From contig NZ_VIAQ01000007.1 in the NCBI RefSeq assembly GCF_006546655.1, positions 4,465 to 44,464 of the forward strand: 40,000 bases of DNA, read 5' to 3'. Below, piece by piece: positions 14,115 to 36,971 of the stretch (positions are counted from its first letter, which is position 1; each line of letters begins with the position of its first letter). A model generated the notes under the pieces. That model searched no databases. It saw only the letters and a list, made by a program, of their open reading frames with translations, and was not told the origin of the DNA. The translations under genes were made by a program, and so were the position numbers. Origin of the DNA: Methanolobus vulcani. GTDB taxonomy: Archaea; Halobacteriota; Methanosarcinia; Methanosarcinales; Methanosarcinaceae.

Positions 14115-14169
14115 AATATCATCTCATTAACATAAAGTATAAATAACGTTAACTCTAGTATATGTTTGT

Positions 14170-16440: not shown

Positions 16441-16540
16441 TTTAAAAATAAATTGGTGCTAAGTGACTATCTGTGCGAAGTATAAGAATTCTTTAACAAA
16501 AGAAAAATTATATCAGCTTTGAAGAAAGTATAGCTGTTTG

Positions 16541-20164: not shown

Positions 20165-20244
20165 TATTACTCATATATATTTAGAACTTAAATCATTGAA
20201 TTAACTTGCTAAAATAAAAGCGATCTCTTCCTTTAAAAATATTT

Positions 20245-22878
20245 TTAAGTAATTATTGATGCAATTCTTTTAATAGCTGGTGTATTAAGATTGATATCCT
20301 TATTCACCAGAATCCTATCCTTTATCCTCTTGAAAGTACCTCGATCTACTCCCCATTCTTCAACTTGTGATTGAGACAATTCAAGTATCTTTCTCATAAT
20401 ACATCCCTTGTAAATGAATACCTGTGAACGCTTAACATCTAGGGCCTGTTCATCAATGTTGTTGGCTTCCTTGCCAATGTAAACAACTCCATCAGCGTGA
20501 ACATGCTTTCTCTCAAGAACCCCAGTATTTCCATCGAACTTATGCTCAAGGTGTTCAGCATATTGCATTATTGTCTTGCTCAATGGCTTGAAATAACGAG
20601 ATCCTTCTTTGATTTCCCCTGTCTCATAATCAATGAATGGCTCATACACAGTCTTCTGAGAATCTGTAGAAAAAGGCATCAAAGGTTTTACTGCCTTCCC
20701 GTTTTCTTCAAGTGCCTGGAATCCTACAAGATAGAAATTGAAAGGCTTGATCTGGTCATTCCATTCCTTACCTGCATTGAATCCCTTGAACCTTCTCAGA
20801 ACATTTGGAGTTGAAACAGTTAGTCTTGAGATTGCATACAAACCTGAATATTTCTCTTCAATATCAATTCCTGAGATTATTCCATAATTCAATTTGAGAA
20901 GATCTTCCCATATCTCAGCCTGCCAATCATCAACAGTTTTTGGGAATGGATTTGTTAAATGCCCAAGTCCATGTAACTTGAAAGACCTCTCACCTTCCAT
21001 AAACTTGATTGTACCATTCTCATAAGTATAAAGGGCATATCGCTTAGAGGAAATGCCATAGAACCACATGTCTTCTTTTTCAGCCTTCAACAGATCAATA
21101 TCAAGGTTGTATGGGTTAAGAGGCTGGAAATAGTTTATGATCTCCTGGGCATGTTCAGGAGGAACAAAGATGGAATCAGTATCCATATATGCATGAACTG
21201 AACCCAACTCTTTTACTTTGGCTTCTGCCATTGCTAAGAATAACTTTGACCCTGCTGTAATCATGACAGCAAGCAAAGGATGGAAGTAATTGCCTGCTTT
21301 CTCAAACCTGTTCTCAGAGGTATTGAAGTCATCCAAACCATAAACCTGAATATCGCTTTTCTTATCCTCTGGATTAAGTTCAATGAAAATACCATAGCTT
21401 GTGGCATTAACAAGTATTTTGATAGCCTGTGCTCTGCTTTTCTCTTGTTGTTTGATTTTTTGCCTTTCCTGAACAAGTACCTGAACCAGATTGTCCTTTG
21501 AAGGATCAATATCAATTCCAAGTATCTGACTAGTCCTTAATCCCTTCTGAACACCCTTTGGAATATACTTGATAGCTTCAACGATCTTTGGAACTTTGCC
21601 TGTAAGAATAACTGAAGCTATAACATCAGGAAGAGCATACCACAATTCAGAATCAGAACTTAGATAATTAACCCCAACGTTATAGCCTGCTCCAGAGCCT
21701 TTGTAATCCATCCTTACAGGCAATATGTCATTGTCAGGTACAATCTTAACCATTACAACAAAATCTTTCCAGTTATCTTTATTTTGAAGATAATCAAGAT
21801 CCACTTTTGAGAGCATGTCCTTAATCTCATTAGTAACAACCTTCATCTCAAGGGATTCAGCAATCATGAACTTCCAGAGATCCATCATCATTGTAACGGT
21901 TGGATACATGCTTGTAAAATCAAGAACTGTGACCTTTGTTGGTTGTTTTCTAATCTTACATTCACACCTTCCACCATAATAAGAGGTCATGATGTTTCCG
22001 ATCATCTCTGAAGGAAATTCAGGATTTAGATCTAAAAACGATTGAATGCCCAGTTGTTTTAGAGCATGTTTTCCTATTGAAGCAGAACTGAAGATTCTGG
22101 TTGGTGGGATGTTTATTTGATAACGATCCAACTCATCAATGAGCTTTTCATAGACATGATATGTTGTTTCAACATCTTGAATTAGATAATCAATATATCT
22201 CTTGGTTACTTTACCATGTTCAATTCCCTTCATCTTTTTGATGGGAGTATTGAGCTTCTCACCTGCTTTTTCAAGTGAGATATGTTTTGATTGAAGAAGC
22301 ACCTCAGCCAGCTTTTGAGCATCAAGATAATATCCTGAAAAATACTCTTCACCTTTGTTCTCTTTGGTTGTTGTCAACTTGAAAGTATAGGCATCTCCCA
22401 TCTTTTTAACAATGATAGGAGGATTTAATTTGTTCTCTGAAAGAGTAAAAGTAAAACCACCTTTGTTTCTTCCTCTTGATTCTCCAACTCTTTTCGAGAT
22501 CTTACTGGTGTCAAAAGGCAGATTGAAACCAATACAAAGAGCATGCCTCCTAAATATTTCTGTGTAAAAAACATTATCTATAAACTCATCCAAAAGGTAA
22601 AGGGGAATTTCATTCATTCTTGCATAAGCTGAAAAAGCATTTTTCTCATTTTCAGTTAGCATTGAAGGATCATAGAACAATCCTTCATGCTGAATGTAGC
22701 CTTCCTTGTATATCTGAAAGAAGCCAATCTTGAAATTCTGATATTGATCTATTGTTGTTTCTGTATCAAATACCAAAACCCTATCATGCCTTAATGGGTC
22801 TTCTCTTGGTCTAAAGAAAGGATTGCCTGAAGATACCTTGACCTTCAGAGTATATCCCCTTACTGCAATGTTAGACAT
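20245..22878 (-). CDS. polB: Family B DNA polymerase of the protein-primed type, with a C-terminal HTH tail
   Basis: 877 aa. Exo I VLVFDTETT, Exo II GFNLPFD, Exo III YLIQDVETT, Pol A LDFTSMYPT, Pol B KILVNATSYG, Pol C YMDTDSI and KxY SKRYALY. The extra C-terminal ~50 aa read GVDRGTFKRIKDRILVNKDINLNTPAIKRI. Confidence 0.9.
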   Translation of the reverse strand: MSNIAVRGYTLKVKVSSGNPFFRPREDPLRHDRVLVFDTETTIDQYQNFKIGFFQIYKEGYIQHEGLFYDPSMLTENEKNAFSAYARMNEIPLYLLDEFIDNVFYTEIFRRHALCIGFNLPFDTSKISKRVGESRGRNKGGFTFTLSENKLNPPIIVKKMGDAYTFKLTTTKENKGEEYFSGYYLDAQKLAEVLLQSKHISLEKAGEKLNTPIKKMKGIEHGKVTKRYIDYLIQDVETTYHVYEKLIDELDRYQINIPPTRIFSSASIGKHALKQLGIQSFLDLNPEFPSEMIGNIMTSYYGGRCECKIRKQPTKVTVLDFTSMYPTVTMMMDLWKFMIAESLEMKVVTNEIKDMLSKVDLDYLQNKDNWKDFVVMVKIVPDNDILPVRMDYKGSGAGYNVGVNYLSSDSELWYALPDVIASVILTGKVPKIVEAIKYIPKGVQKGLRTSQILGIDIDPSKDNLVQVLVQERQKIKQQEKSRAQAIKILVNATSYGIFIELNPEDKKSDIQVYGLDDFNTSENRFEKAGNYFHPLLAVMITAGSKLFLAMAEAKVKELGSVHAYMDTDSIFVPPEHAQEIINYFQPLNPYNLDIDLLKAEKEDMWFYGISSKRYALYTYENGTIKFMEGERSFKLHGLGHLTNPFPKTVDDWQAEIWEDLLKLNYGIISGIDIEEKYSGLYAISRLTVSTPNVLRRFKGFNAGKEWNDQIKPFNFYLVGFQALEENGKAVKPLMPFSTDSQKTVYEPFIDYETGEIKEGSRYFKPLSKTIMQYAEHLEHKFDGNTGVLERKHVHADGVVYIGKEANNIDEQALDVKRSQVFIYKGCIMRKILELSQSQVEEWGVDRGTFKRIKDRILVNKDINLNTPAIKRIASIIT

Positions 22879-23212
22879 TTGTAGGCATCTCCATTACAAT
22901 ATCATCTAATCGATCTACAAGTTCTCTCAGTAGGGCTAAGAGTGAAATTGCATTAACCACCTTTTTATTTTCTTCAGATGCATCTTTGGATCTTACTTTA
23001 GGACTAAGCCTGTTCTGTTTTGCTGTAACCTTTGAATGACAGTTCATACAGAGTGGCTTGACCACATCTGAATTATTTCTGCCATCTACATGATGCATCT
23101 CAATAACTTTCTCATCGTCTTCTCCACATACAGCACATGCCATAGGTGGCTTCTTTCCTTTCTTATATCTGTTAATACTCTTACTGTAAGCTTCTTTATC
23201 CATAGTATCCAC
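22871..23212 (-). CDS. HNH endonuclease
   Basis: 113 aa. CAVCGEDDEKVIEMHHVDGRNNSDVVKPLCMNCHSKV gives CxxC...HH...N...CxxCH. It overlaps the polB start by 8 nt. Confidence 0.8.
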   Translation of the reverse strand: MDTMDKEAYSKSINRYKKGKKPPMACAVCGEDDEKVIEMHHVDGRNNSDVVKPLCMNCHSKVTAKQNRLSPKVRSKDASEENKKVVNAISLLALLRELVDRLDDIVMEMPTNV

Positions 23213-23215
23213 TCC

Positions 23216-23857
23216 TCAACTTTGATAAATATCCAAATATTCGGGTTCTTCCTGAGCCTCATTTATTTCATAAAGGCGTTCAAGATCTGTTACAAAGAAA
23301 TGTTTTGTACCATTTACATCGGTGATATGTATATCAATAAATCTTTTCAATAAACTTGAATCGCCGGTCTTTAAAGCTCTGTTAATTGCATTGAAATATA
23401 AACCAATTAGAGTTCTATCCTTTGAATTTGTGGTTACGATTGAAATTTGACCTGCATCTTTCTCATAGATGAGCATTTCAACTTCAATTCTATCTGTTGT
23501 GGTTACTTTCCATTTTCCTTTGGATTTATAGAGATATTTTCCAAGATTTCTGATTATGTCTTTCTTGTTAATTCCAGTCTTTTCAACAGCTTTGGAATAT
23601 GGTACCCCTTTCCTCATAAGCCTGAGAATTTGAAGGCTTAGTTTTCTATCCCGCTTTTGTTGTGAACTTAAACCGTTCCAAGAGCTTGTGCTTAAGTCAT
23701 GATCCTTAAGCCTGGTATTTCTCAGTTCGTTCAAGCTTAGGGTTGGAAATCTTTCATGGAATCGGATTATCCTTCTAGCATACTCAGAGCTTCTTGGTTC
23801 AGCCTTGAGCCATTCTCCATAAGTCTTGTATTCCTTTGAGAAGCGCTTGAGTGTCAT
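23216..23857 (-). CDS. Casposon protein of unknown function with a central HTH-like segment
   Basis: 213-aa ORF packed tightly between the RHH gene (ATGA overlap) and the HNH gene (3-nt gap). LRLMRKGVPYSKAVEKTGINKKDIIRNL looks like an HTH. Confidence 0.6.
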   Translation of the reverse strand: MTLKRFSKEYKTYGEWLKAEPRSSEYARRIIRFHERFPTLSLNELRNTRLKDHDLSTSSWNGLSSQQKRDRKLSLQILRLMRKGVPYSKAVEKTGINKKDIIRNLGKYLYKSKGKWKVTTTDRIEVEMLIYEKDAGQISIVTTNSKDRTLIGLYFNAINRALKTGDSSLLKRFIDIHITDVNGTKHFFVTDLERLYEINEAQEEPEYLDIYQS

Positions 23858-23994
23858 TTCTCAGCCTCCATGAGCCTGATGAATGCAATTCTCAACACTT
23901 CAGCCTGAGAACATCCGTATTCTTTCGCTTTCTGTACCAACTTACCCTTTAGATAAGGGGAAAGTGTAACCAATATTCTGGTATTCGACTTCAT
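23854..23994 (-). CDS. Ribbon-helix-helix (CopG/Arc-like) protein, 46 aa, below the ORF-track cutoff
   Basis: Hand translation gives MKSNTRILVTLSPYLKGKLVQKAKEYGCSQAEVLRIAFIRLMEAEK. This has a beta-strand then two helices, with the typical S/T-x-x-E-h-h-R pattern. Its stop overlaps the next ATG (ATGA at 23854-23857). Confidence 0.6.
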   Translation of the reverse strand: MKSNTRILVTLSPYLKGKLVQKAKEYGCSQAEVLRIAFIRLMEAEK

Positions 23995-24088
23995 ACAATA
24001 ATCAACATCATAGGAAAGAATATATACAGATTTGAAGTATAGTTTAATGTATAATTTGATATATTTGCCTAATAAGATTGGTGTATTA
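23995..24088. promoter_or_regulatory. Divergent promoter region between the replication module (minus strand) and the integration module (plus strand) of the casposon
   Basis: A 94-bp AT-rich spacer with several TATA-like strings (atatatacag, tttaatgtataatttgatatattt) lies between divergently oriented first genes. Confidence 0.3.
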
Positions 24089-24337
24089 ATGATTAAGAAT
24101 GAAGTAGATTTTAAGGTAAATACTGAAAATTACTTACACGAAAGTGGGCCTGTTAGGCGGGAGACTTTGATAAATCATCTAATAGAATCCAATGGCTATA
24201 GCAGATCTAGTATTGAAAGAAAGTTAACTAATCTAAAAAAGCAAGGGATTATTGTAACCTTGAAGACAACTGAAGATTTTGCTAGATTTGGTATAAAAGA
24301 AGAAGATAAGAGATCTGCATATAATCACAAGAGATAG
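24089..24337 (+). CDS. Winged-helix DNA-binding protein
   Basis: The in-frame ATG at 24089 lies inside ORF 24032-24337. GPVRRETLINHLIESNGYSRSSIERKLTNLKKQGIIVTLK is a typical wHTH with its wing. Confidence 0.55.
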   Translation: MIKNEVDFKVNTENYLHESGPVRRETLINHLIESNGYSRSSIERKLTNLKKQGIIVTLKTTEDFARFGIKEEDKRSAYNHKR

Positions 24338-24446
24338 TTTTGAAAGAAAAAGGCATATTGACAAGGTTTTTGAATACCTAGAAAATGGAGATGACATAGA
24401 CATAGAAACTGCGTTAACAGAAATCAGAAGATATGAAGAACGCTAT

Positions 24447-24986
24447 GTGATGGATTCAAAACAACTTGACAATTTAGTTACTATACTTTATGATAAATCC
24501 AATGTTAGAATTATAGATAATATTTTGAGTATTCTCTACAAACATATTATTGTAAAAGAAATACTCCCTTCTGATAAAGATAATTTACTGAAAGTTCTGA
24601 AAAAACTCCTATACAAATTCCCAGAAGCTCATCCAAATTATTCAATGATTAGGAGGCATATTCTTCGACTTCTTGGATATTATGAGGATTATGCTGTCGT
24701 TGAGCAATTAATCAAAGATACTGAAAATGGTAGATTACCACAATTCAAAAACGATTATTTGACTAATTTTACAACAAATATTATTGAAGTAGGCAGAATT
24801 GAACTATTCGAACTTGAAGTAAAGGTGAGAAAATCAGGTGATGAAAAGACAGCTGAAAGTTTGAATGAGATCAGGAATTACGCTATAGAAAATTTAAATG
24901 AATCTGGAATAAAAAACCCATTAGAAGCTATTAAGGGTGGAAATCTAAATATTCAATTTAGTGGAATCAAGGGGATCAAAAAATGA
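24447..24986 (+). CDS. Alpha-helical protein of unknown function, translationally coupled to cas1
   Basis: 179-aa ORF. Its stop overlaps the cas1 ATG (ATGA at 24983-24986). The reading frame is also open for 50 codons upstream, with no canonical ATG/GTG/TTG start there (see findings). Confidence 0.55.
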   Translation: MMDSKQLDNLVTILYDKSNVRIIDNILSILYKHIIVKEILPSDKDNLLKVLKKLLYKFPEAHPNYSMIRRHILRLLGYYEDYAVVEQLIKDTENGRLPQFKNDYLTNFTTNIIEVGRIELFELEVKVRKSGDEKTAESLNEIRNYAIENLNESGIKNPLEAIKGGNLNIQFSGIKGIKK

Positions 24987-26185
24987 AATTCCTTCTTCTA
25001 AACGGTCATGGAATCGACATGCGAGTAAATGGGGCTAAACTACACATTAAGGATGGAAGATTCTCAACAACTGATGAACCAGAGGAATATGTATTCTCTC
25101 CAAAGAGGATGGATGTTGATAGCATCATTATCTATGGTAAAAATGGAAATCTTACACTTGATGCCATCCGATGGCTCATTAAACATAATGTACAGATATC
25201 AATTCTCAATTGGGATGGAAAGTTATTGACAACAATGCTCCCTCCTGATAGCACTAATGTAAAAACGAAATTTGCACAATACCATGCATATGAGACTCAA
25301 GAGAATAGAATAAAGATAGCAAGGGCCCTAGTTGAGGCTAAAGTTGATAAATCAACTGTTGTGCTTGAGTACCTAAATCAACGTTATTCTACTGTTGATT
25401 TTGATTTATCAACGGATGTTGATAAGCTAAAGAAGGTCAACTCAATAGTTGAAATAATGGGTGTTGAAGGCGGTATTGCTTACAAATACTGGCATGAGTT
25501 CTCAAAGGTCATTCCTGAGAAGTATGATTTTGAATCTAGAATCGATTCGAGTCGGAGGGCCACAGGGGCAGGGGATATGGTAAATGCTATGCTAAACTAT
25601 GGTTATGCTTTGCTAGAAGCGGAATGTCTTAGGGCTATCAATGCTGTTGGCTTAGATCCTCATGTTGGTTTTTTACATGAAATGAATACTGGAAAGAACA
25701 GCTTGGCTTACGACCTGCAAGAACCATTTAGATTCCTTGTTGATCTAGCGGTTATCAACCTTGTTGAGTCTGAGAGAATGGAAAAGAAGGATTTCATCAG
25801 GACAGAGAATTATTCGCTCAAACTTAGACCTAGTGGAGCTAAGAAGCTAACTAAAGAGCTCAATCTATGGTTCAACAAGAGAGTTAGTTACAAAGGAAAT
25901 ATGACTATGTGGAGTTATGTTCTGTTCCTGAAAACTAGAGAATTGGCTCAGTATTTAGTTGGTAAACGTCAGAATGTTGATTTCATAAAACCACGATATG
26001 AGGCTAAACGACAGGACTCAAACGACATACGACAGAAGATATTGAGTATTTCTTATTCCGATTGGAAAAAGCTAGGTTTCTCTAAAGGTACGTTGCATTA
26101 TATGAAGAAAAATGCTAAGGCAGATAAGCCTTTTACTTTGAATGCTCATGTTAGGGAAAGGTTGGAATTATGGGAAGGATGTTAA
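24983..26185 (+). CDS. cas1: Casposase (Cas1-family integrase with a C-terminal HTH)
   Basis: 400 aa. The Cas1 catalytic-region motifs are GVEGGIAYKYW (Glu), DPHVGFLHE (His) and LAYDLQEPFRFLVD (acidic). The C-terminal extension is ISYSDWKKLGFSKGTLHYMKKNAKADKPFTLNAHVRERL. Confidence 0.9.
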   Translation: MKFLLLNGHGIDMRVNGAKLHIKDGRFSTTDEPEEYVFSPKRMDVDSIIIYGKNGNLTLDAIRWLIKHNVQISILNWDGKLLTTMLPPDSTNVKTKFAQYHAYETQENRIKIARALVEAKVDKSTVVLEYLNQRYSTVDFDLSTDVDKLKKVNSIVEIMGVEGGIAYKYWHEFSKVIPEKYDFESRIDSSRRATGAGDMVNAMLNYGYALLEAECLRAINAVGLDPHVGFLHEMNTGKNSLAYDLQEPFRFLVDLAVINLVESERMEKKDFIRTENYSLKLRPSGAKKLTKELNLWFNKRVSYKGNMTMWSYVLFLKTRELAQYLVGKRQNVDFIKPRYEAKRQDSNDIRQKILSISYSDWKKLGFSKGTLHYMKKNAKADKPFTLNAHVRERLELWEGC

Positions 26186-26203
26186 TATTAAAAAATAATA
26201 CTA

Positions 26204-26701
26204 ATGTATATGAGATTCAAAGAAGAATATTTCTTTTGTAGTCCTAAGTTGCTTAGAAACATCCCAGAAGTAAATGAAATCTTTGAATGCATAAAAGCTG
26301 TTAAATGGCAACCCGAGTTTAAGCTGGAAGACAAAAATCACCAATCTGCTTATAACAAAGCTTTTGAACAGGAATTTTCTAATTATCTTTGGTCTAATAA
26401 ACCATTACTTAATGACAATCCAAAATTGATTGGAGACTTTCAGAAAAACGATGTTTTTGTTGAAATTCAGTTTGGAAATAGTGCTACTATTTATCGTGAT
26501 TACTATAAATTCCATTATGGGCTAGCAAATAAACTACTATCTTTAGCAGTATTGATTGTTCCAACAAACCCAAAAAAGTTTTTTCCAACTCGAAAATCAA
26601 GTGTCAGTAACATGGCAGAATTTGATTTTGCTTACAAATACTTCAATTTACTTCCAATTCCTGTTCCTATATTATTGATAGGATTACTGCCTGAAAATTG
26701 A
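26204..26701 (+). CDS. BglII-like restriction-endonuclease-fold protein with no partner methyltransferase
   Basis: 165 aa. GDFQKNDVFVEIQFGN gives D-x8-E-x-Q, the spacing I remember for the BglII active site (Asp84, Glu93, Gln95). Confidence 0.45.
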   Translation: MYMRFKEEYFFCSPKLLRNIPEVNEIFECIKAVKWQPEFKLEDKNHQSAYNKAFEQEFSNYLWSNKPLLNDNPKLIGDFQKNDVFVEIQFGNSATIYRDYYKFHYGLANKLLSLAVLIVPTNPKKFFPTRKSSVSNMAEFDFAYKYFNLLPIPVPILLIGLLPEN

Positions 26702-26714
26702 TAACATTCTCCAA

Positions 26715-26885
26715 ATGTCACAAAAAGAAGCGGAAGCTCTAGGAGTTTCAAGGAGCAGGTTTCAGGGAATCAAGCAAAGAATAAGGGAAAATAGAGATAT
26801 CAACTTGAATACTCCGGCAGTGAGGAGGTTGGTAGAGTATATTTATCCATTAATTGAAGTGGGGTTTAATTGCGTTAATTTGTAG
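26715..26885 (+). CDS. Stand-alone 56-aa HTH protein, paralogous to the PolB C-terminal tail
   Basis: Hand translation gives MSQKEAEALGVSRSRFQGIKQRIRENRDINLNTPAVRRLVEYIYPLIEVGFNCVNL. Compare the PolB tail SQSQVEEWGVDRGTFKRIKDRILVNKDINLNTPAIKRIASII. Confidence 0.5.
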   Translation: MSQKEAEALGVSRSRFQGIKQRIRENRDINLNTPAVRRLVEYIYPLIEVGFNCVNL

Positions 26886-26921
26886 GTATAAAAAAGGAAA
26901 TAGAAACAATATATACTTTCT

Positions 26922-27404
26922 TTAGGAATCTTTAAATTCTATTTTCGTACTTGGGATAACATCATAGTTATTAGTGTCTGTTGTAATATCGGTTATTTCT
27001 ACGTTATCTGACCCTTCAACAATTAATGTAATCGAAGTTTTCTCTTCTGGATTAAGATTCTTAATGAATACTTCCGCATAATTTCCATTTCCACCTAGTA
27101 TTGTTACATCAGCACTTCCGTATTCTGAAACATTGGTAATGTACCCATTCGTATGTATTTCAAAATAGACATGTTGCGCAATTCCATCGCCTTTATTCTT
27201 CAAATAAACAGTAATGTCATATGTGTCTGGGGATATCTCTTGTGTTGAAGATGTAAATAATAAATCTGGGTGAGGAGCAAAAAAACCTGCAATAGCCTTT
27301 GCTATAAAGATGACAGAAACCCCTATGATAATACCAATTATTAATGTCTTTGTTGTAGATTCACAGTTTTTCTGATTAGACTCCATTGCTATACAGTAGG
27401 ACAC
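26922..27404 (-). CDS. N-terminally membrane-anchored beta-rich protein
   Basis: 160 aa with one TM segment (LIIGIIIGVSVIFIAKAIAGFF). An alternating-pattern beta-rich ectodomain follows (ITVYLKNKGDGIAQHVYFEIH, ITLIVEGS). Confidence 0.5.
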   Translation of the reverse strand: MSYCIAMESNQKNCESTTKTLIIGIIIGVSVIFIAKAIAGFFAPHPDLLFTSSTQEISPDTYDITVYLKNKGDGIAQHVYFEIHTNGYITNVSEYGSADVTILGGNGNYAEVFIKNLNPEEKTSITLIVEGSDNVEITDITTDTNNYDVIPSTKIEFKDS

Positions 27405-27549
27405 TTAATATATATATTTATCTTGTGAAATGATAACATGAGGGAGTCGATTTCGGAAAATTAGCAAATGATAGAGAGAATTGAAAAAAATCCGAATTTG
27501 CATACTTCAGCAGTTAACGAAATAGTTAATCGTGCTAATTAAAAATAGT

Positions 27550-28815
27550 TTAATCATTCAGTGAATGTTTATTTTTGAAATCATATATTGAAACCAAATG
27601 ATTGGGGCTGACAGACTTAGCAATCTTCTCATTGACTGTATTATTTTGCATATCTATTATTGTATCAGAAAGTTTTAAACCTAGACTCGCCAAGAGTCCA
27701 GAACCTAATACACCTTCAGCAACCCCTCCTATCAAGCCTAAACTTAATGAAATTCCAAATTTAATTCCATCAGCTCTCCTAGTTATTTTCCTGGAGTCAT
27801 TCCAAACATTCTCAAGTATCTCTGACATATCTCCACTTTTTTCCTCAATGATATCTGTTTTATTTCTTTTTACTCCTTCATTGAGGGAATTTACTATTTT
27901 GTATAAATCTTGATCATCATATTCTTGAATCACTTTTGTGCATCCGCTTATTGTCTCGGGATATAAAGTTATTTTATTCAAAAGAAATTTTCCAATCTCA
28001 GGAGGAACAGAAGAAGTATTAGGCTCACAATCAAATTGTTTTTCTAAATCATTTACATAACCCATGAATTTTTCTCCATAATGACATATAGGCTTCAATA
28101 AACATTTTTGAGGGTTTGATATTAAAAAACCGTATACTGTAAGGTATAAATGAGCTTTTTCAGGATCTATAATCATTAAAGTTCCAATTTCATCAGCCAG
28201 TTCCTCGTAACCGCTGGCTTTAAGGATACTATAACGACTAGCATAATCTTCTAATTTTGCTAAAGTATATGATATATTACTATTTCCAAATGCACCTGTT
28301 GCGTCCATTACAAACTTATTAAAACCATGCTCAGCTAGGGTTTCAAATTCAATTTTGTTTTTTTTGTCCAATTCGTGACCAGTAACGGATAATGAATCAT
28401 ATTGAACAATTGGTGGTTTGAGTTCAGTAAGTAATGGCTCAAGAAAATCCAGATTTTTATAATAGGTAGGAGGCATCATGAGAACAAATTGTATTCGTCC
28501 TGTTTCTTTTTGAAAATCTATCATTTCATCAATTTTATGGGAATTAAAACCCATTGTAAATTCGTGAGTTTTATCAAAAGCTTCTTTGTTGTCTTTAGGG
28601 ATTAACTTCGCTAATGTTGAACCATAAAATGGAACAACACCCCATATATTAGTATAAGGGTCTGCAATTGGTTCTTTCAACTTAATGAACCTATTTTTAG
28701 GTGGATATCTTTCATTTAGTCCTACTTTTCCCTCATCTAGTCTTGTGATAAAACGAATGGTTTCTTCCTTTTCATGAGCCTCATAATCTTGAAGGAACTC
28801 TTCAAAAGTATTCAT
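27550..28815 (-). CDS. Cargo protein of unknown function with a C-terminal glycine-zipper segment
   Basis: The probable start is the ATG at 28815 (MNTFEEFLQ), inside track ORF 27550-28890. The C-terminus has GIKFGISLSLGLIGGVAEGVLGSGLLASLGLKL (GxxxG repeats). Confidence 0.55.
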   Translation of the reverse strand: MNTFEEFLQDYEAHEKEETIRFITRLDEGKVGLNERYPPKNRFIKLKEPIADPYTNIWGVVPFYGSTLAKLIPKDNKEAFDKTHEFTMGFNSHKIDEMIDFQKETGRIQFVLMMPPTYYKNLDFLEPLLTELKPPIVQYDSLSVTGHELDKKNKIEFETLAEHGFNKFVMDATGAFGNSNISYTLAKLEDYASRYSILKASGYEELADEIGTLMIIDPEKAHLYLTVYGFLISNPQKCLLKPICHYGEKFMGYVNDLEKQFDCEPNTSSVPPEIGKFLLNKITLYPETISGCTKVIQEYDDQDLYKIVNSLNEGVKRNKTDIIEEKSGDMSEILENVWNDSRKITRRADGIKFGISLSLGLIGGVAEGVLGSGLLASLGLKLSDTIIDMQNNTVNEKIAKSVSPNHLVSIYDFKNKHSLND

Positions 28816-28992
28816 ATTAGGTAAATAGAGTTTATTGCATAAAAATCTTGTATGGGTAATAATTATTATTTCGATTTTCAAACGAAACAATTAAAATTTA
28901 AAATATAAGTTCCGTTTTTTTGTGTTAACTATATCCCTAATCTAAAATACTAAGGGTACAATTCGAACCTTTTAAAATACAATTCTTAAAAG

Positions 28993-29022
28993 AGTTGCAT
29001 TTTTCTGAGTTACCTATATCCC
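28993..29022. repeat. Right terminal inverted repeat of the casposon
   Basis: agttgcatttttctgagttacctatatccc is the exact reverse complement of 16411-16440. Confidence 0.9.
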
Positions 29023-29036
29023 CGCATCGCTTCTAA
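29023..29036. repeat. Right copy of the target-site duplication
   Basis: cgcatcgcttctaa is identical to 16397-16410. Confidence 0.85.
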
Positions 29037-29154
29037 GGGATATAGGTAACTCTGATTTTTTGTACGCTAGTCCATTTTGGACTTTAATGAAAATACATAC
29101 GGTATATAATTTGATGAGGTAAATTTTAAATTTTTAAAAGCATTCATTAATGTG

Positions 29155-30165
29155 ATGTTATATGCCAATACTAAAGATGGGGAGAAAATAAGAGCCGCTA
29201 AAAAAAATAAGAGTGAAGAAATAAAGGCATATTGCCCTCTTTGTGATTGGCCAAAATGTGAAAAGCCTTTAGTTTACAAGACTGGTGAAGTTAATATCCA
29301 TCATTTTGCTCACCCAGAAGGCACAGAATGTTCAGATAAGTGGAGCAGGGGTAAAGAATCAGAATGGCATTTGGGTTGGAAAAATTTAGTCAACAAGAAA
29401 TATTGTGAAGTTCCAATTGTAAAAGGCTGGAAAAAACATCGAGCCGATATACAAAATAAAAACGGGTTAGTTATAGAATTACAAAACTCTCCCATATCAG
29501 TTTCTGAAATTCATGAACGTGAAGACTTCTACAACAATATGATTTGGTTAATTAACGGACAGGAAAAAAGAATTATTGTACATTCACCTGATTCTTATTG
29601 TGGTAGCGGTTATTGGCCAGATGACTGTAATATGATAATATGGAAGTACTCAAAAAAGGCAATACTTGAAGCTAAAAAAAGAATATTTATTGATATAGGT
29701 AATGAAGAAATATTATATATAGTCAAAAATGTCAATGGGTCATATTACTCTGAAACTAACGAAGGAAATAGGTTTGGTGGCTATTTAATCAGTAAAACTG
29801 ATTTTGTTGATTATTTTTTAAAGGCTAAAAACAACTCTGTTTTTGATAATATTCAGAAGAGTATGCTAGAAGGCAATGGTTGGTATTTAGAACATCTTAA
29901 ATTATTCGAAAAGTATTTTCATTGGTTACTAAAAACAAAAACTCATTCTAGCTTGCGATATAGGGTAAATGAAGAAGAAATGTTTGACGACTATTTTATT
30001 GTTGATGACTATAAATCACCTCGATTTTTGATTGATTTGACTTATTTCATTGTAGAGCACCCTGAATATAATGACAAACGGTATTTATTATTCAAAACTA
30101 TAAAAACTGGTATAGAGTTGGGCTGGCACGATGCTATGAGAGATGGTACATTAAAGTATGCATAA
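29155..30165 (+). CDS. CoiA-like PD-(D/E)xK nuclease-family protein with an N-terminal zinc ribbon
   Basis: CPLCDWPKCEKPL...HHFAH, then SEWHLGWKNLV...KKHRADIQNKNGLVIELQNSPISVSEIHEREDFYNNMIWLING. This matches the H..K, R-x-D and hE-h-Q-x-S pattern of CoiA-type proteins. Confidence 0.55.
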   Translation: MLYANTKDGEKIRAAKKNKSEEIKAYCPLCDWPKCEKPLVYKTGEVNIHHFAHPEGTECSDKWSRGKESEWHLGWKNLVNKKYCEVPIVKGWKKHRADIQNKNGLVIELQNSPISVSEIHEREDFYNNMIWLINGQEKRIIVHSPDSYCGSGYWPDDCNMIIWKYSKKAILEAKKRIFIDIGNEEILYIVKNVNGSYYSETNEGNRFGGYLISKTDFVDYFLKAKNNSVFDNIQKSMLEGNGWYLEHLKLFEKYFHWLLKTKTHSSLRYRVNEEEMFDDYFIVDDYKSPRFLIDLTYFIVEHPEYNDKRYLLFKTIKTGIELGWHDAMRDGTLKYA

Positions 30166-30170
30166 TCAAT

Positions 30171-30440
30171 TTATTTTATTTCACCAACCCATTTCAAAAA
30201 AAATACAAAGCCAATAAGCAAATAAGCTCCCACTTCTCCTTTATTTGACAACCATTCAATAATACCCAACCACCATGGAATTTGACTTTGGGCTGCTAAT
30301 TCAACGCTTGTTTCTATATTTTCTTGACTGGGTTCATTAATAGCCTTCAATGAAAATATCCCAATCTTTAATAACAGAGGTAATACAAACACTGCAAATA
30401 TAATAATTTGAATTGTTTCCTTGTTCAAAAAATCTGGCAT
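30171..30440 (-). CDS. Small membrane protein
   Basis: 89 aa with two or three hydrophobic helices (IQIIIFAVFVLPLLLKIGIF, AYLLIGFVFFLKWV). Confidence 0.4.
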   Translation of the reverse strand: MPDFLNKETIQIIIFAVFVLPLLLKIGIFSLKAINEPSQENIETSVELAAQSQIPWWLGIIEWLSNKGEVGAYLLIGFVFFLKWVGEIK

Positions 30441-30474
30441 TTATTTCTCCACAAAAAGCTAAAATTCTTTAGTA

Positions 30475-31341
30475 TTATGAAAATTTGACAGTTGCAGTCT
30501 TTGTTTTATTCCTTTTTTTACGGAGATTTCCTTCAAGCACTAACAATGAAACACCAAAAGAGTTCAAATCTTGTTCAAACTGGTTGTAAAATTCAGAATT
30601 AATTTTTCCTATATCAAGGACAACTAGTGAAATATTAGGATAGTGTTTGGCATAAGTATGTAATTGACCTAAAGAATTTCGAATATGTGTCTTGCTATTA
30701 CCAATCTTCAGTTCTAATGCTACTGTATTTATATGATTTTCAAGTACAATATCTATTTTATCATTAAACTGTCCACATTCAACTTGTCGATGGATGTTCC
30801 ATCCATTCTTACCATATGTGAAGTTCAAAAGAGAAGAAAGATGACTTTCAAACTCATATTCGTCAATAACTTTTAAGGAATTATCAAACTCTTGTGATAT
30901 TGTGCAAAGCACCGAATATAATATTTCTTCATCTGAAGAAAGTTCGGTTGAGATTTCCGTTTGAGGTCTATTATTTTGGGAGACATTAGATACAATAGCT
31001 TTATTATTTTGGTTTGATTCACTTATTAAATCTGAAACATTAACTTTTCGTTTTTTGAGATAATTTATTATTTCCTCATAACTTAAGTTAGATCTTATGG
31101 AAATTATATAATCATCTATGGTTAACTTGGGAACTTGTTCATCATCAAATACAAATTCATGAGATGTAACTTTAATTCCATAATTTTTTGCCATATATTG
31201 AAGCTGCCTCAATGTGAGTCGACGCAATGCTTTTGTTTTATTTCTTTTTAGCTCTTCACGTCTTTGTATTTCATCGGTTACTTTACCAGCACCCTCTGCC
31301 ATTTTTTGTGCACCCTTTTTTACAGCATCCCATAAAGCCAC
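30475..31341 (-). CDS. SAP-like N-terminal domain fused to a PD-(D/E)xK nuclease-like C-terminal domain
   Basis: 288 aa. LRRLTLRQLQYMAKNYGIKV is SAP-like. The C-terminal KIDIVLENHINTVALELKIGNS gives D...E-x-K. It lies directly downstream of the truncated cas1 on the same strand. Confidence 0.5.
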   Translation of the reverse strand: MALWDAVKKGAQKMAEGAGKVTDEIQRREELKRNKTKALRRLTLRQLQYMAKNYGIKVTSHEFVFDDEQVPKLTIDDYIISIRSNLSYEEIINYLKKRKVNVSDLISESNQNNKAIVSNVSQNNRPQTEISTELSSDEEILYSVLCTISQEFDNSLKVIDEYEFESHLSSLLNFTYGKNGWNIHRQVECGQFNDKIDIVLENHINTVALELKIGNSKTHIRNSLGQLHTYAKHYPNISLVVLDIGKINSEFYNQFEQDLNSFGVSLLVLEGNLRKKRNKTKTATVKFS

Positions 31342-31444
31342 AATATCACTTCTATAAAAAGTTCGTTAAATATAAATCGTTATTACAAATTGATTATATC
31401 TTACTTAAATTTTTATATTTATTCTACGTGTCTATATCAGAAGT

Positions 31445-32338
31445 TTACATAGATTCTTCCCACATCTCCAACCTTTCCCTCACATGAGCGTTCATAGTAA
31501 ACGGTTTATCCGCTTCAGCATTTTTCTTCATGTAGTGTAATGTACCCTTAGAGAATCCCATCTTCTTCCAGTCTGAATATGAGATACTGAGTATCTTCTG
31601 CCTAATATCGTCTGAATCCTGTCTCTTAACAACATAAGCAGGTTTACTAAAATCAAGTGTTTTTCTTTTACCAACAAGATACTGAGCAAGCTCCCTAGTT
31701 TTCAATAACAAAGCATAACTCCACATAACAGACTGCTTCTTGTATGGAACTTTCTTGTTCATCCAGTCATTAAACTCTTCAGTCACTTTCTTAGCTCCTG
31801 AAGGTTTAAGCCTGAGTGAATAGCTCTCAGTCCTGATAAAGTCTGTATTATCCATCTTCTTGGACTCAATAAGGCTGATTACAGCCATATCAACAATGAA
31901 TCTAAAAGGCTCTTGCAGATCATAGGCAAGACTGTTCTTGCTAGGATTCATCTCATGTAAAAATCCTACATGAGCATCAAGACCGGCCGTATTAATGGCT
32001 CTCAAGCATTCAGCTTCAAGAAGAGCATAACCATAATTAAGCATAACATTAACTTTGTCTCCTGCTCCTGTTGCTCTCCTGTATTGGTCTATCCTAGAAC
32101 AAAAATCATATTCATCAGGAATAGCTTTATTGAACTCGTTCCAGTACTTCCAAGCAACTCCGCCTTCGATACCCATGATTTCCTTGATAGAATTAGCAGA
32201 CTTCAGTTTTTCAATATCCTCTGTGAAATCATAATCTATTACAGGATATCTTTGTTTCAGATAATCAAGCACTACAAGAGATTTGTCAAACTTAGCCTCG
32301 ATGAAGTTCTTTGCTATCTTGACCCTGAGGAGGTTGAC
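31445..32338 (-). pseudogene. cas1: Casposase (cas1) lacking its 5' third
   Basis: The track ORF 31445-32272 aligns to residues ~125-400 of the intact casposase (GIEGGVAWKYW, DAHVGFLHE, LAYDLQEPFRF, SISYSDWKKMGFSKGTLHYMKKNAEADKPFTMNAHVRERL). Similarity continues upstream without a start (..LLRVKIAKNFIEAKFDKSLVV) to about 32335 and then ends abruptly. Confidence 0.75.
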
Positions 32339-32340
32339 CT

Positions 32341-32460
32341 GAAATGAGATTCTCTAAGGGTACTCTGCATTACATGAAGAAAAACGCAAAGAGCTATAAA
32401 CCGTTTACATTGAATATACATGTTAAAAAAAGGTTGGATATGTGGAGTAAGTTGCTTTGA
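32341..32460 (+). pseudogene. cas1: Isolated 3' fragment of a third cas1 (last ~37 codons)
   Basis: Translation gives EMRFSKGTLHYMKKNAKSYKPFTLNIHVKKRLDMWSKLL*. Compare the C-terminus of the intact casposase, LGFSKGTLHYMKKNAKADKPFTLNAHVRERLELWEGC*. Confidence 0.7.
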
Positions 32461-32662
32461 CACATTATTCGGGCACATACGAACATCTTTATATAGTATC
32501 CGAACATAGTACGTCTGCTTTTAGAGGCTGAAACTACTTTGATAATTATAGGTCTAGATGGTATTACCTTAACTGTATTTACTGTTTTTTCGTATCTTTA
32601 ACCAAATGGTTGTATTCTTTTTGAGCTAATACTTAAAGGACGTGAAATATTTGTTTAATAAC

Positions 32663-32854
32663 ATGCAGTCAAATGCTCCAGTAGAAGCTGGCAAAACATA
32701 TGAAGTGACAATCGAAGACATTGCAAGAGAAGGCGACGGAATCGCAAGAGTAAGCGGATTTGTTGTTTTTGTACCAGATACAAAAGTCGACGATGAAGTT
32801 ACAATTAAAGTTACTAAAGTAATGAGCAAGTTCGCATTTGGCGAATTAGCTTAA
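32663..32854 (+). CDS. TRAM-domain protein
   Basis: The ATG at 32663 lies inside ORF 32642-32854. MQSNAPVEAGKTYEVTIEDIAREGDGIARVSGFVVFVPDTKVDDEVTIKVTKVMSKFAFGELA is the classic small archaeal TRAM protein. Confidence 0.8.
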   Translation: MQSNAPVEAGKTYEVTIEDIAREGDGIARVSGFVVFVPDTKVDDEVTIKVTKVMSKFAFGELA

Positions 32855-32885
32855 TTTTTGTACTTAAAATTCATTTAATTATACA

Positions 32886-32925
32886 GTAGAAAACCAAGAA
32901 ATTGGTTTCTACTTCACTTTTTTTA
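32886..32925 (+). terminator. Hairpin plus T-run terminator after the TRAM gene
   Basis: agtagaaaacca pairs with tggtttctact (11 bp, one bulge), followed by tcacttttttta. Confidence 0.5.
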
Positions 32926-33236
32926 TCATTTTACTTATATGTTATACCTTACAAAGCGTACACTCTTTACCAGAATATTAAATGCTGTTGTGTACACTAC
33001 GTGCAAAACACCGTGCACTTTTTTCGCCTTGTATATATTCCCGCACCTGAGCGTCGGGATATAGTTATCTCCAAAAAACCGAACTTCTTGAAATATATCA
33101 TTTATATTTTATTTATTTGTATATGCACATGAATTTATAATGAAACACAGTGTTAAAAATAAATGGTCTGAAAAAGCTTAGTAATGATGTTAAATCTATC
33201 AAAAGAATAATATTTAATATGTAATATAGACTTGAC

Positions 33237-33450
33237 ATGGATTCAATTGATGAAATAGTAGACCCAGATATACAATCTTTAGTGAACAAGAAAGACACTA
33301 AAGGGATACTCAACACATTGAGTCATAGTAACCCAAAAATAAGAAGTCAAGCAGAAAAGACTTTTTTCAAGTAGTAAGTTTTAATGACACTGAAATTCTT
33401 ATTGAAGGTTTAAATTCTGAAGTTTAGGCAACACAAAATGAAGTAAAATG
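33237..33450 (+). pseudogene. Decayed HEAT (PBS-lyase type) repeat gene fragment
   Basis: MDSIDEIVDPDIQSLVNKKDTKGILNTLSHSNPKIRSQAEKTFFK* is followed, in another frame, by NDTEILIEGLNSEV*ATQNEVK. These are HEAT-like repeat units interrupted by stops. Confidence 0.3.
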
Positions 33451-34140
33451 AATATGGAACGGTGAAAGTTTTGGTGGATAACTTCACTCTCAATATTTAA
33501 ACAAAGGAATGATTAATGGTGTGAATTTAAATAAAATGTTTACTCTAAAACACCAGCATTAAAGCCGATGTTCCTGATTTTTGTTTCTAATTCTCATTTA
33601 ATGAAACATTGTTTCTTATTCACTTTTATCTGTTAAGAAGGATACTTACTTATGTGGATTACTAAGTGGAGTGGGAATCTACATAAGATACTGGAGCGAG
33701 ATTATCGGGTATCAACCTTCTATTAATAGTGGGGGTACGGTATTAGAAAGTTGATACCTTTACTACATTTGGGTGACGTACACCATATATAGATGATTTG
33801 CCTGATAGCGGTCATCACCCAATATAACATCCAACCAACAATAAAATTGGCTCTATCAGGCAACCTTTTCTAATAATCAATTGAATTTTTCCTGTTTAGC
33901 TGCATCCCTGGTTTGCGATGCGGGGTATATCTACTCAGATTATAACGCCTCTTTTGTAAGCATTATACAGCACCCCGTTTCTATTCCTACTTGTAATTTC
34001 TGCGCCTCACATTATTAAAAGAGATAACAGTGTTAACCTATTCAGTAATAATGTTTCATAAACGATATAAAATATCAAACATTATATTATAATGTGTAAA
34101 TTTTTGCATAGCGCTAATGATATTTTATGGAGGAGTGGGA

Positions 34141-34455
34141 ATGTCAGATACTGTAGGTTTTGTAGTAGTATACAATAAACCAGATGATACTGAGAAATTT
34201 GATACACGATATCAGGAACATTTGAGTTTATTTAATCGAACATTTGGGGATATCGTAGAAAATACGAGGATTTTAAAGTTAGACGATGAAACATTTTATC
34301 AATTCAGTATAGTAGAATTCAAACCTGGTACAGACTTCGATGCTGTGATGAATTCTTCTGAAATGAAAGCTGTGATCGGAGATGTACTAACGTTTGTTCC
34401 TGAAGATAAAGTTAAACTTCTGCCAATAACAGAAACTATCCCTTGCTCACAATAG
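34141..34455 (+). CDS. EthD-like (dimeric alpha/beta-barrel) small protein
   Basis: The ATG at 34141 lies inside ORF 34117-34455. MSDTVGFVVVYNKPDDTEKFDTRYQEHLSLF... follows the typical EthD-family start pattern and size. Confidence 0.4.
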   Translation: MSDTVGFVVVYNKPDDTEKFDTRYQEHLSLFNRTFGDIVENTRILKLDDETFYQFSIVEFKPGTDFDAVMNSSEMKAVIGDVLTFVPEDKVKLLPITETIPCSQ

Positions 34456-34541
34456 TGAATAAGGTTTGATTATGCGTTTTTACTGTGTTAAATAGCTATG
34501 TAAAGTCAATATCAACTTTAAGGCATATTGGGGGTATACAA

Positions 34542-35167
34542 ATGGTAAAAGTAAAAAGAGATAGCACTGCATTCATTATTGTGGATGCACAGAACTTTGT
34601 CCTTCATGAAAAAGGAGCTAATGCAGAATGGGAGCCTGGAAATTCGCTCAGGAAAAGGGTATTGTAAAAAGTACGGTCAAAGCCATTGAAAAAATCCGGG
34701 CAGAAGATATACCCATAATATTCGTTATTATGGAGCTACGACCTCAAATATCACAGGCTTTAAACGCAAACTTACCTGAGACAGATTTCTGGAAAACAAT
34801 AAAGGAACTGGATTTTTCAAAAATAACCCGCGAAGAAGGGGAATTCCAGATGAAGGTCATCGAAGAGTTCACACCTCGGCCTGAAGATCTCATCGTCACA
34901 AAACACCATACTATGAATAGTTTTCACGGCACAGACCTTGACAGGATACTCAGGTCCCTGCACTGTGATAACCTGCTCTTTGGAGGTGCCATTACAAACC
35001 TCTGTGTTGAAAGTACTGTAAGGGGAGCTTTTGACAGAGGGTATAATTGTATTGTCCTGAACGATTGCGTTGCTTCAGTTAGTGACGAGGCACAGAATTT
35101 TGCCATGGAGTTTGTATTTCCAAAATTTGGGAGGGTATGCAACTCAGAGGAGCTTAAGATTTTGTAA
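34542..35167 (+). pseudogene. Isochorismatase-family cysteine hydrolase interrupted by a frameshift near 34620-34635
   Basis: The N-terminal piece MVKVKRDSTAFIIVDAQNFVLHEKGANAE.. (catalytic Asp) is in one frame. The rest, ..GAWKFAQEKGIVKS...IVTKHHTMNSFHGTDLD...GGAITNLCVESTVRGAFDRGYN (Lys and Cys of the triad), is in the track ORF 34628-35167. Confidence 0.65.
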
Positions 35168-35432
35168 AGGAGACAGTCAAATAAATAAAAATACAGTTTT
35201 CATTCGTGCCATTGGGGATTTTAGGAGGAAGAAATGGGAGATAAAAAGAGTACACAAGTATCAGTACTAATAATTATTTAATTTAATGTATTAAATAATA
35301 ATGTTGGGGAAGAGGTTGGATATTTTGTTAAGTACTTTCAGTCCAGTATTATTTGAAAATAATAGCAGACTGTTTTTTAAGATACTTCACCAATCTTACC
35401 CATGATATAAGAATCAGTGGAGAGGGTTGAAT

Positions 35433-36356
35433 ATGAAATCTAAGAGCACACAATTGGCCATAGTGATTGCTGCAATGATATTGTTTAGCGTTATTTTTGT
35501 ACCAACGGCGAGCGCTACTCCAGAGGAATCTAAGGAGAAATGGACGAAAGACCATACTATAAAGAACGTTAAATTGACAAAGATTTACAAGTATGAAGAA
35601 GGGTACCTGAAAATAAATAAGATATATTCTGGTGAGGAGCTTAAGAAGAAGACAGGATTCAGTAAATTAAATGAGGAGATGGAAATTCCTCTGGAGACTG
35701 GAACTGTAATGATAAACAGTAAGGATGACAAATTGGTCGTGACTGAAAATGAATTGCTATTAACGAGCAAAAAGTCTGGAACTATCAAGTTGGAAAAAGG
35801 AAAAGAGAAAGAGTATACGACCAAAACATCGATGGTAATTACATATAAGAACGATCCATACCAATGGTGGAATGATGACTATAAATATCCTCAATGGACA
35901 TGGTCAAAGTTCTTCAGCTGGTATGTACGGGAAGACCCAATAAATCTGGCATGGGATAATTCCTGCTTAACTGAAGTTAAAAGCGAGATACCAGAATCTT
36001 GGACTGATAACCCATCTGAGTACACACATTATGTCTATGATCCTAAACTCGGCTGGAAGAAGGGCGATGGTGTGGCTACAAGTGTATATAGAATATCTGG
36101 TGGATACCATGCACGTTTATGGACAATTTCAAATGGTGCTGTGGTAGCTAATGCTCATGAGGATGATGGGGTTTTCGAATGGCCACTCGGACATCAGGCC
36201 ATTGATTACGAAGGCGCAGAAGGGATAGTTGCCGCATTTTATGATGGATGGGATTTCTTTGCTTATCCCCTTGGTTATCCTCTTGGCAATGAATATACAA
36301 ACGAATATAATGCATACAATAATGGGAATGCTACCGTGATAACTGCAGTTAAATAA
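35433..36356 (+). CDS. Secreted protein of unknown function
   Basis: It has a signal peptide (MKSKSTQLAIVIAAMILFSVIFVPTASA) and a Trp/Tyr-rich C-terminal domain (GGYHARLWTISNGAVVANAHEDDG..GHQAIDYEGAEG). Confidence 0.55.
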   Translation: MKSKSTQLAIVIAAMILFSVIFVPTASATPEESKEKWTKDHTIKNVKLTKIYKYEEGYLKINKIYSGEELKKKTGFSKLNEEMEIPLETGTVMINSKDDKLVVTENELLLTSKKSGTIKLEKGKEKEYTTKTSMVITYKNDPYQWWNDDYKYPQWTWSKFFSWYVREDPINLAWDNSCLTEVKSEIPESWTDNPSEYTHYVYDPKLGWKKGDGVATSVYRISGGYHARLWTISNGAVVANAHEDDGVFEWPLGHQAIDYEGAEGIVAAFYDGWDFFAYPLGYPLGNEYTNEYNAYNNGNATVITAVK

Positions 36357-36394
36357 GGTGGTTCCAGCCACCTTTCTTATCTTTTAGGAGTTTA

Positions 36395-36850: not shown

Positions 36851-36971
36851 TTGATGTAGTAAATATTTAGGTTACACTGCTTCTTTTATAATTGGTGTTT
36901 CAGACTGGATTCAGTATTCTTATATACCTTAAAGTTCCACGTTTTATAGATGGAAATATTGGGGTGGTCGT

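Follow-up and report, generated by a model that had tools for sequence, protein, structure and literature searches.

In the 40,000-nucleotide stretch of Methanolobus vulcani DNA analysed here (the window), positions 29007-29052 are best read as a tail-to-tail junction of two casposons that used a single tRNA-Leu(TAA) target, with an older element, casposon A, arriving first and an intact element, casposon B, inserting later on the tRNA-proximal side. We give this reading as a whole a probability of about 0.8. Tandem insertion with one shared target duplication (TSD) is already described (2016) and has been produced in vivo (2023), and the locus reported here is a Methanolobus instance of it.

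Two casposon ends share one target duplication next to tRNA-Leu(TAA)

The target gene, tRNA-Leu(TAA), was located by ARAGORN at 16316-16402 on the plus strand and is identical (85/85) in M. vulcani PL12/M and in one Methanolobus metagenome-assembled genome (MAG). Its last four nucleotides, CGCA, are also the start of a 14-bp target duplication, CGCATCGCTTCTAA, and by virtue of this overlap the tRNA gene serves as the 'leader' flank of the target. The duplication is present on the plus strand at 16397-16410 (copy 1) and, as an exact repeat that is common to both of the facing casposon ends, at 29023-29036 (copy 2). These are the only two exact copies in the window, and every other match requires three mismatches. 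The 16-mer that forms the casposon terminus, GGGATATAGGTAACTC, occurs exactly at 16411-16426 (plus), 29007-29022 (minus), and 29037-29052 (plus). When up to three mismatches are allowed, 0.28 matches to this 16-mer are expected in the window by chance, and none of 100 shuffled sequences gave five.

Read along the plus strand, the order is thus the tRNA, the TSD, GGGATATAGG…(12.6 kb)…CCTATATCCC, the TSD again, and then GGGATATAGGTAACTC followed by TGATTTTTTGTACGC…. At 29013-29046 this places …CCTATATCCC, CGCATCGCTTCTAA, and GGGATATAGG… directly one after the other, so that two casposon ends lie on either side of exactly one TSD at a sequence-specific target, as in a tandem array. The initial annotation of this DNA had reported an exact 16-nt repeat of the casposon terminus at 29037-29052, which is accurate to the base, and had read the arrangement as repeated use of a regenerated target, a view that the two ends across one shared TSD bear out.

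The element nearest the tRNA is an intact family 2 casposon

Casposon B (16411-29022, plus strand) was delimited by its inverted repeats, its TSDs, and its gene content. The inverted repeats are 33 nt long and 97% complementary, and the right end is the exact reverse complement of GGGATATAGGTAACTC. Its genes, all of them open, encode a TPR/GreAB-C/PIN protein, PolB, an HNH-like protein, HTH proteins, Cas1, a BglII-like nuclease, and two further ORFs. The cas1 gene (24983-26185) has a 400-aa product that matches Pfam Cas_Cas1 with an E-value of 3.5e-70 and aligns over its full length (residues 1-399) to the M. mazei casposase 6OPM with an E-value of 1.8e-193; as in family 2 casposons, it is a Cas1-type casposase with a C-terminal HTH extension. 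The family 2 complement of PolB, HNH, and HTH genes is likewise present: polB (20245-22878) matches Pfam DNA_pol_B_2, while a 113-aa HNH-like protein, recognized as such from the ORF listing alone, and HTH proteins appear in the ORF listing. The BglII-like nuclease matches Pfam Endonuc-BglII. The ends of the element read …TATATCCC-3', the same eight bases as the M. mazei casposon ends in the structure (PMC6977970), and terminal inverted repeats of this kind together with a 14-bp TSD starting with CGCA are a further family 2 property of B. These features make B a typical family 2 casposon, and one that is apparently active.

The largest cargo gene of B (16538-20164) encodes a 1208-aa protein with TPR repeats, a GreA/GreB C-terminal domain, and a PIN domain, which corresponds to the Pfam 'TPR-GreAB-C-PIN system' and represents a predicted conflict or defence module carried on a casposon. 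On the other side of the target gene, about 1 kb upstream of tRNA-Leu, lies a TnpB (IS605 OrfB / Cas12f-like) gene at 14170-15291, which sits within a 1.7-kb insertion (13676-15392) relative to M. vulcani PL12/M.

The sequence at 29037 behaves as a casposon terminus

The plus-strand sequence at 29037-29070, GGGATATAGGTAACTCTGATTTTTTGTACGCTAG, was assigned as the terminal inverted repeat of casposon A. It matches the B terminus exactly for 16 nt, and if a single mismatch is allowed the match can be followed to 19 nt (GGGATATAGGTAACTC[T/A]GA), after which the two termini diverge (TTTTTTGTACGC versus AAAATGCAAC), as had been noted initially. The cas1-side terminus of A is GGGATATAGGTAACTCTGATTTTTTGTACGC, which reads GGGATATAGGTAACTCTGA… directly after the TSD CGCATCGCTTCTAA, and the pattern of termini of this A type can be written as TATAGGTAACTCTG[AT]TTTTTTGTACGC. 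Over approximately 34 nt, the 29037 terminus aligns in register with eight other casposon repeats from the window and three related genomes. It keeps the invariant positions and has GTACGCTA in common with the tRNA-Leu-adjacent end at locus L001, and the only replacement relative to the other repeats is that of an A-run by a T-run. Its leave-one-out PWM score was 19.7, against a maximum of 15.3 from 20 shuffles that were scored with the related full matrix rather than the leave-one-out one.

This diverged terminus (…CTCTGATTTTTTGTACGCTAG) recurs on two independent metagenome contigs, L011 and L012, at the same distance from a CoiA-like gene. Contig L012 starts with GATATAGGTAACTCTGATTTTTTGTACGCTAGTC, approximately 115 nt upstream of a CoiA gene on which the 3' end of a cas1 gene converges at a distance of 48 nt. 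On L011, the order is a cas1 3' end, a 296-aa gene, a converging CoiA gene, and then …TATAGGTAACTCTGTTTTTTTGTACGC at the end of the contig. The terminal repeat of A is identical in sequence to that of L012 and differs by one base from that of L011, and both contigs break inside the repeat, as would be expected of repeated termini. A 1.2-kb non-autonomous element at L004 (9795-11117), also found at L005, has a CoiA-like gene as its only gene, enclosed by A-type inverted repeats, and sits at another gene, tRNA-Leu(TAG), 14 bp into the tRNA end. Its two flanking 14-mers, CGCATCATATTTCA and CGCACCATTTATCA, are alike at 11 of 14 positions. In these genomes (L011, L012, and L004/L005), the A-type terminus is therefore mobile together with its cargo.

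Could the 16-mer, or the whole 30-nt direct repeat made up of the TSD and 16 nt, instead be native target or attachment sequence? We regard this as extremely unlikely. Such a reading would draw on the 36-nt direct repeat, 94% identical, formed by 16394-16429 and 29020-29055, and on the motif GGG(A/T)TATAG, which is found at +14 in every close tRNA-Leu(TAA) orthologue. Against it, the right end of B is the exact reverse complement of the 16-mer, as predicted of an inverted repeat, and in L011, L012, and L004, at places other than tRNA-Leu(TAA), the homology of 29037-29175 carries on into the region ahead of CoiA. The right repeat at L004, which lies on the far side of the element and abuts a non-tRNA flank, is a good A-type repeat, and no tyrosine integrase was found among the B-encoded proteins in the ORF listing or by Pfam. 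The initial annotation had reasoned that the 16-mer would be target sequence if it also stood downstream of tRNA-Leu in relatives free of casposons. Metagenomic tRNA genes whose final 22 nt are the same, which are more distant loci, could be scored in 130 cases, and approximately 115 of these have nothing repeat-like downstream; where a repeat-like sequence does follow, it starts at +14 from the start of CGCA, and once at +15. At the four closest tRNA-Leu(TAA) loci (L003 from M. vulcani PL12/M, L002, L120, and L001), a casposon end is found at +14 in 4/4, and the repeat subtypes and 14-mers differ between them despite identical or near-identical tRNAs. None of these four is an empty, casposon-free orthologous site, and the tRNA-Leu(TAA) site appears to be saturated with casposon ends in this clade. 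Taken together, the in-register alignment, the CoiA-linked recurrence, the L004/L005 element, and the tRNA genes that lack the sequence indicate that 29037 is the start of a true casposon end and not of target sequence.

In M. vulcani PL12/M (L003, 2287-8000; NZ_FNCA01000008), the closest relative with a sequence, the same tRNA-Leu is followed by CGCATGTCTTTTTA, a casposon-type repeat, a UDG-like gene, and a type I restriction-modification system. The defence genes at this locus may be the cargo of a casposon, or the repeat may be a solo end that adjoins an island.

We also considered whether a short-read assembler could have used the shared 30-nt repeat to link two separate loci. Casposons are a frequent source of broken or confused assemblies (PMC4779613), and the L011 and L012 contigs themselves end inside the same repeat. 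However, the window is a continuous stretch of a 55.5-kb contig, an artefact of this kind would require B to be flanked by identical 14-mers at another locus, and the arrangement agrees with published tandem casposons. We therefore consider a misassembly very unlikely.

Casposon A is a one-armed remnant of a distinct lineage

Casposon A extends from 29037 to approximately 32324 and is inverted relative to B. Next to its terminus is a CoiA-like cargo gene (29152-30165, plus strand; Pfam CoiA_N), whose product is 100% identical to an NCBI protein annotated as CoiA [Methanolobus vulcani] and whose homologues adjoining a same-type terminus share 67% (L012), 58% (L011), and 54% (L004) identity with it. 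This gene is followed on the minus strand by a gene for a small 89-aa protein (30171-30440), taken from the ORF listing, which gave no Pfam hit and has two hydrophobic segments, pointing to a membrane protein. Beyond it, also on the minus strand, lies a gene for a 288-aa DUF8371-like protein (30475-31341), homologues of which are found directly downstream of cas1 in both L007 (84% identity) and L011 (80%, the 296-aa protein). A possible PD-(D/E)xK motif (D...ELK) and a weak local similarity to the BglII-like protein of B (E-value of 0.011) weakly indicate a nuclease fold for this protein, for which there was no significant Pfam hit (Cry1Ac_dom-VII scored 17 bits, under the cut-off) and no PDB sequence hit.

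The last gene of the arm is a cas1 gene on the minus strand (31445 to approximately 32324) that is transcribed towards the 29037 terminus and lacks approximately the first 107 codons, with a Pfam match confined to positions 136-282 of Cas_Cas1. While its product is homologous to the casposase, it is predicted that it cannot be functional as it stands. It shares 74% amino acid identity with the Cas1 of B over B residues 127-398, with homology reaching back to approximately residue 108, and the synonymous divergence between the two genes is saturated (dS of 2.1). This level of identity together with the saturated dS argues that A and B are distinct lineages and that A is not a copy of B. The remaining ORFs of A are all open, and the family is under purifying selection. 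No polB gene for A was found in 29053-40000, nor was a distal repeat with CGCATCGCTTCTAA, so that A is defined by one terminus only and represents a remnant rather than a complete casposon.

These results agree with the initial annotation in that the terminus belongs to another, related casposon, as judged from its in-register repeat, the recurrence of the same terminus by CoiA in L011 and L012, and the divergence of the two cas1 genes, and in that A has the opposite orientation, the cas1 genes of A and B both being transcribed towards the junction so that the cas1-side ends face each other. The proposal that the gene order of A mirrors the right arm of B holds for the architecture only: there is no homology between the cargo of one arm and that of the other, and the indications of a nuclease fold are weak. 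A remnant is indeed present, but the range to 32460 that had been assigned to it takes in a separate cas1 fragment on the plus strand (32344-32457). The suggested search by terminus and CoiA-like gene for a full-length relative recovered the terminus-CoiA relatives L011 and L012, in which the same terminus, and not a different one, stands next to the same cargo; neither is full-length. No full-length A-type casposon was found, the best relatives being these two short contigs ending in the repeat and a remnant in L007. In IMG/VR, neither the junction pattern nor the A-type terminus nor the CoiA protein had a match, and a scan with the Cas1 of A returned another cas1 3' fragment (L133) as its sole match.

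The cargo of the A lineage is modular, as L012 lacks the genes for the 288-aa and 89-aa proteins and L011 lacks the gene for the 89-aa protein, and the arm of A could itself be composite, which we treat as a minor possibility. In that case the 29037 terminus would derive from a small CoiA element that became fused by deletion to an unrelated remnant consisting of the 89-aa, 288-aa, and cas1 genes. The L004/L005 element, in which CoiA alone is bounded by A-type repeats, is consistent with such an origin, as is L007, in which a repeat of a different type comes immediately after the homologue of the 288-aa gene. In L011, however, cas1, the 296-aa gene, the converging CoiA gene, and the A-type repeat follow one another with no repeat between the genes; in L012, CoiA converges closely on cas1; and in the window, the repeat matrix scan found no repeat-like sequence after CoiA. 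These arrangements make a fusion quite improbable. The locus also documents a distinct casposon lineage with a CoiA-like cargo gene, a diverged terminus, and a 1.2-kb non-autonomous derivative.

Casposon B most likely inserted second, between the tRNA and casposon A

We infer the order of insertion and the chemistry of integration from the homologous casposase of M. mazei, which requires 30 bp of tRNA ahead of the TSD for efficient integration (PMC6977970). Activity is lost when the M. mazei target is mutated in the 4 bp 5' of CGCA or in bp 12-17 (PMC6977970). In the window, the sequence upstream of the distal TSD copy is the repeat of B itself and not tRNA. As only the tRNA-proximal copy keeps the required tRNA context, a newcomer would be expected between the tRNA and a resident element. 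The target requirement of the homologue, combined with the intact state of B, whose TSDs are identical at 14/14 positions, versus the decayed state of A, makes it most likely that B came second and used the tRNA-proximal copy. Casposon A would thus have integrated first at the 3' end of tRNA-Leu(TAA), with the end that carries the cas1-distal cargo next to the tRNA, and B would later have entered the copy of the 14-bp duplication that lies nearer the tRNA. In that event, the B casposase would have made staggered cuts 14 bp apart, and gap repair would have duplicated CGCATCGCTTCTAA again, placing B between the tRNA and A at a distance of exactly one duplication from A. Loss of the PolB half of A and of the first ~107 cas1 codons, through deletion or rearrangement, could have occurred before or after the arrival of B.

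The junction sequence is symmetric and records no order, and the open ORFs and purifying selection in A mean that A need not be very old. It is thus conceivable that B was the resident, and that A inserted into the distal TSD copy of B and was then truncated. This opposite order is at odds with the need of the M. mazei homologue for tRNA upstream of CGCA, where the distal copy has the B repeat. [quoted passage not shown] We consider it improbable. The proposal in the initial annotation that the intact element inserted second is accordingly probable in view of the target requirement of the M. mazei casposase and the decay of A.

Comparison with known tandem casposons and other polarised targets

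Tandem casposons that share one TSD at tRNA-Leu, with one copy inactivated, were described in Methanosarcina by Krupovic et al. (2016, PMC4779613), who named Met2HT1A3-C1/C2 in Methanosarcina sp. 2.H.T.1A.3 and sister strains and Met2HA1B4-C1/C2 (PMC4779613, Fig. 2), and who read them as repeated use of the same sequence-specific target. The locus described here resembles these tandems in its target at the tRNA-Leu 3' end, in the inactivation of one copy, and in its TPR, HTH, PolB, and HNH genes. It differs from them in being from Methanolobus and in that the older copy is a one-armed remnant, whereas theirs is full-length with stop codons. It also differs in its tail-to-tail arrangement, in its distinct cargo (CoiA-like and DUF8371-like), and in the more decayed layers that lie beyond. 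In M. mazei, both casposon orientations have been found at tRNA-Leu, as have solo-TIRs (PMC4779613), and there, too, the terminal CGCA of the tRNA forms the beginning of the 14-bp TSD. As in the in vivo tandem of M. mazei Go1, the newcomer would have entered the TSD of a resident and one TSD is shared; while that tandem was engineered and lies at an intergenic site, the present one is natural, lies at a tRNA gene, and combines two different autonomous lineages. A full-text search for casposon together with Methanolobus returned passing mentions only, one in each of two papers.

At the level of mechanism, a polarised target that is regenerated and gathers newest-first arrays next to a 'leader' is also seen in the leader-proximal integration of CRISPR spacers and in Tn7 pile-ups at attTn7, and both analogies were drawn by the authors cited above. 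The likeness is one of mechanism and not of family membership, since the inserted units here are 12-kb transposons rather than 30-nt spacers, and both crRNA and Cas effectors are absent. The locus is a natural, well-preserved case, from a second genus, of polarised casposon target re-use next to a tRNA 'leader', the process that underlies the proposed transition from casposons to CRISPR.

Further casposon relics lie beyond casposon A

The truncated cas1 gene of A is abutted head-to-head, with 19 nt of filler between, by a separate relic block on the plus strand (32344-32940), which contains a third cas1 3' fragment (32344-32457), 77-79% identical to both other cas1 3' ends, and a TRAM-domain gene (32663-32854). 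M. sediminis has a counterpart of the whole block, with 86.7% identity, at L134 (9683-10277), where it comes after further cas1 debris, and the TRAM gene may be casposon cargo. In the wider M. sediminis region (L134, 9263-10351), which is a casposon graveyard too, the block is surrounded by the remains of cas1, polB, and repeats, and no tRNA lies closer than 10 kb. Cas1 3'-terminal fragments of approximately 115 nt recur in relics (window 32344, L007 7043, and L133 331) and start within approximately 10 nt of one position, around the codons for W-K-K-M-G-F-S-K-G; inspection by eye revealed no convincing TSD signatures next to them.

Past this block, a clear second junction of an end, a 14-mer, and an end lies at 33010-33087 and is composed of a repeat on the minus strand (33010-33041), the 14-mer CGCACCTGAGCGTC (33042-33055), and a repeat on the plus strand (33056-33087), with leave-one-out PWM scores of 21.4 and 29.4 for the two repeats. 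The left repeat is of the L001 type and the right one of the L002 type; identity is 87% to the L001 repeat and 78% over 45 nt to the tRNA-proximal 14-mer and repeat of L002. The 14-mer of this junction differs from the TSD flanking B and shares CGCACCTG with the tRNA-proximal 14-mer of the Methanolobus MAG L002. We considered the repeat at 33010-33041 as the partner of the A terminus and rejected it, as the flanking 14-mers are alike at only 6 of 14 positions and the block between is the separate relic shared with M. sediminis. A probable third junction, decayed, extends from approximately 33877 to 33957 and has repeat-like sequence on both sides of an inverted 14-mer at 33909-33922 (minus strand, CGCATCGCAAACCA); its repeat at 33877-33908 (minus strand) scored 22.8 by PWM with the site included and 9.2 leave-one-out, which is weak when taken alone, and the junction was also seen as the inverted-repeat pair I13. 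A 45-aa HEAT-like gene fragment (33237-33374) lies between the second and third junctions.

Together with the cas1-TRAM relic, these junctions show that the region past A is a multi-layer casposon graveyard. The relics at 33010-33087 and approximately 33877-33957 and the tRNA-side repeat of L001 resemble the solo-TIRs of M. mazei, which are ends next to CGCA-containing 14-mers whose body has been lost, unlike the 29037 terminus, which still carries 3.3 kb of its element including cas1. The junction 14-mers all start with CGCA, their remaining 10 nt differ, and one is inverted. Such differing 14-mers are not predicted by simple repeated insertion, and one candidate explanation is that a TSD can be carried over with the element, which was reported once in vivo, for MetMaz-C1, including in the form of a reverse-complemented TSD (2023 NAR study, PMC10359463). 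It is a tentative and rather doubtful reading, though one with some chance of being right, that the locus comprises at least four insertions stacked outward from the tRNA, namely B, A, the cas1-TRAM relic, and a mini-relic at 33056-33908, and forms a natural record of the carry-over of old TSDs. If so, a tRNA 'leader' can gather heterogeneous, CRISPR-array-like units of end, 14-mer, and end. With its successive layers and differing 14-mers, the locus is suited to asking whether casposons carry their TSD along, and this multi-layer heterogeneous array is the only part of it that might repay further work.

The three terminus-like sites in this region (33010-33041, 33056-33087, and 33877-33908) were absent from the initial annotation, as was a fourth within the right end of B itself, an inner inverted repeat of a different type at 28907-28937 on the minus strand with a PWM score of 36.9. 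The inner repeat forms part of a nested unit (28907-28989, minus strand) in which it is combined with a fossil 14-mer and a fragment resembling a tRNA 3' end, and beyond which lies the outer repeat, the functional one. The same unit is found in L007 (10871-10960) and in L133 (approximately 1936-2000), and in the latter the 14-mer is still CGCACTTTAGAAAA. This nested arrangement suggests that an ancestor took up its old target through the use of an outer end.
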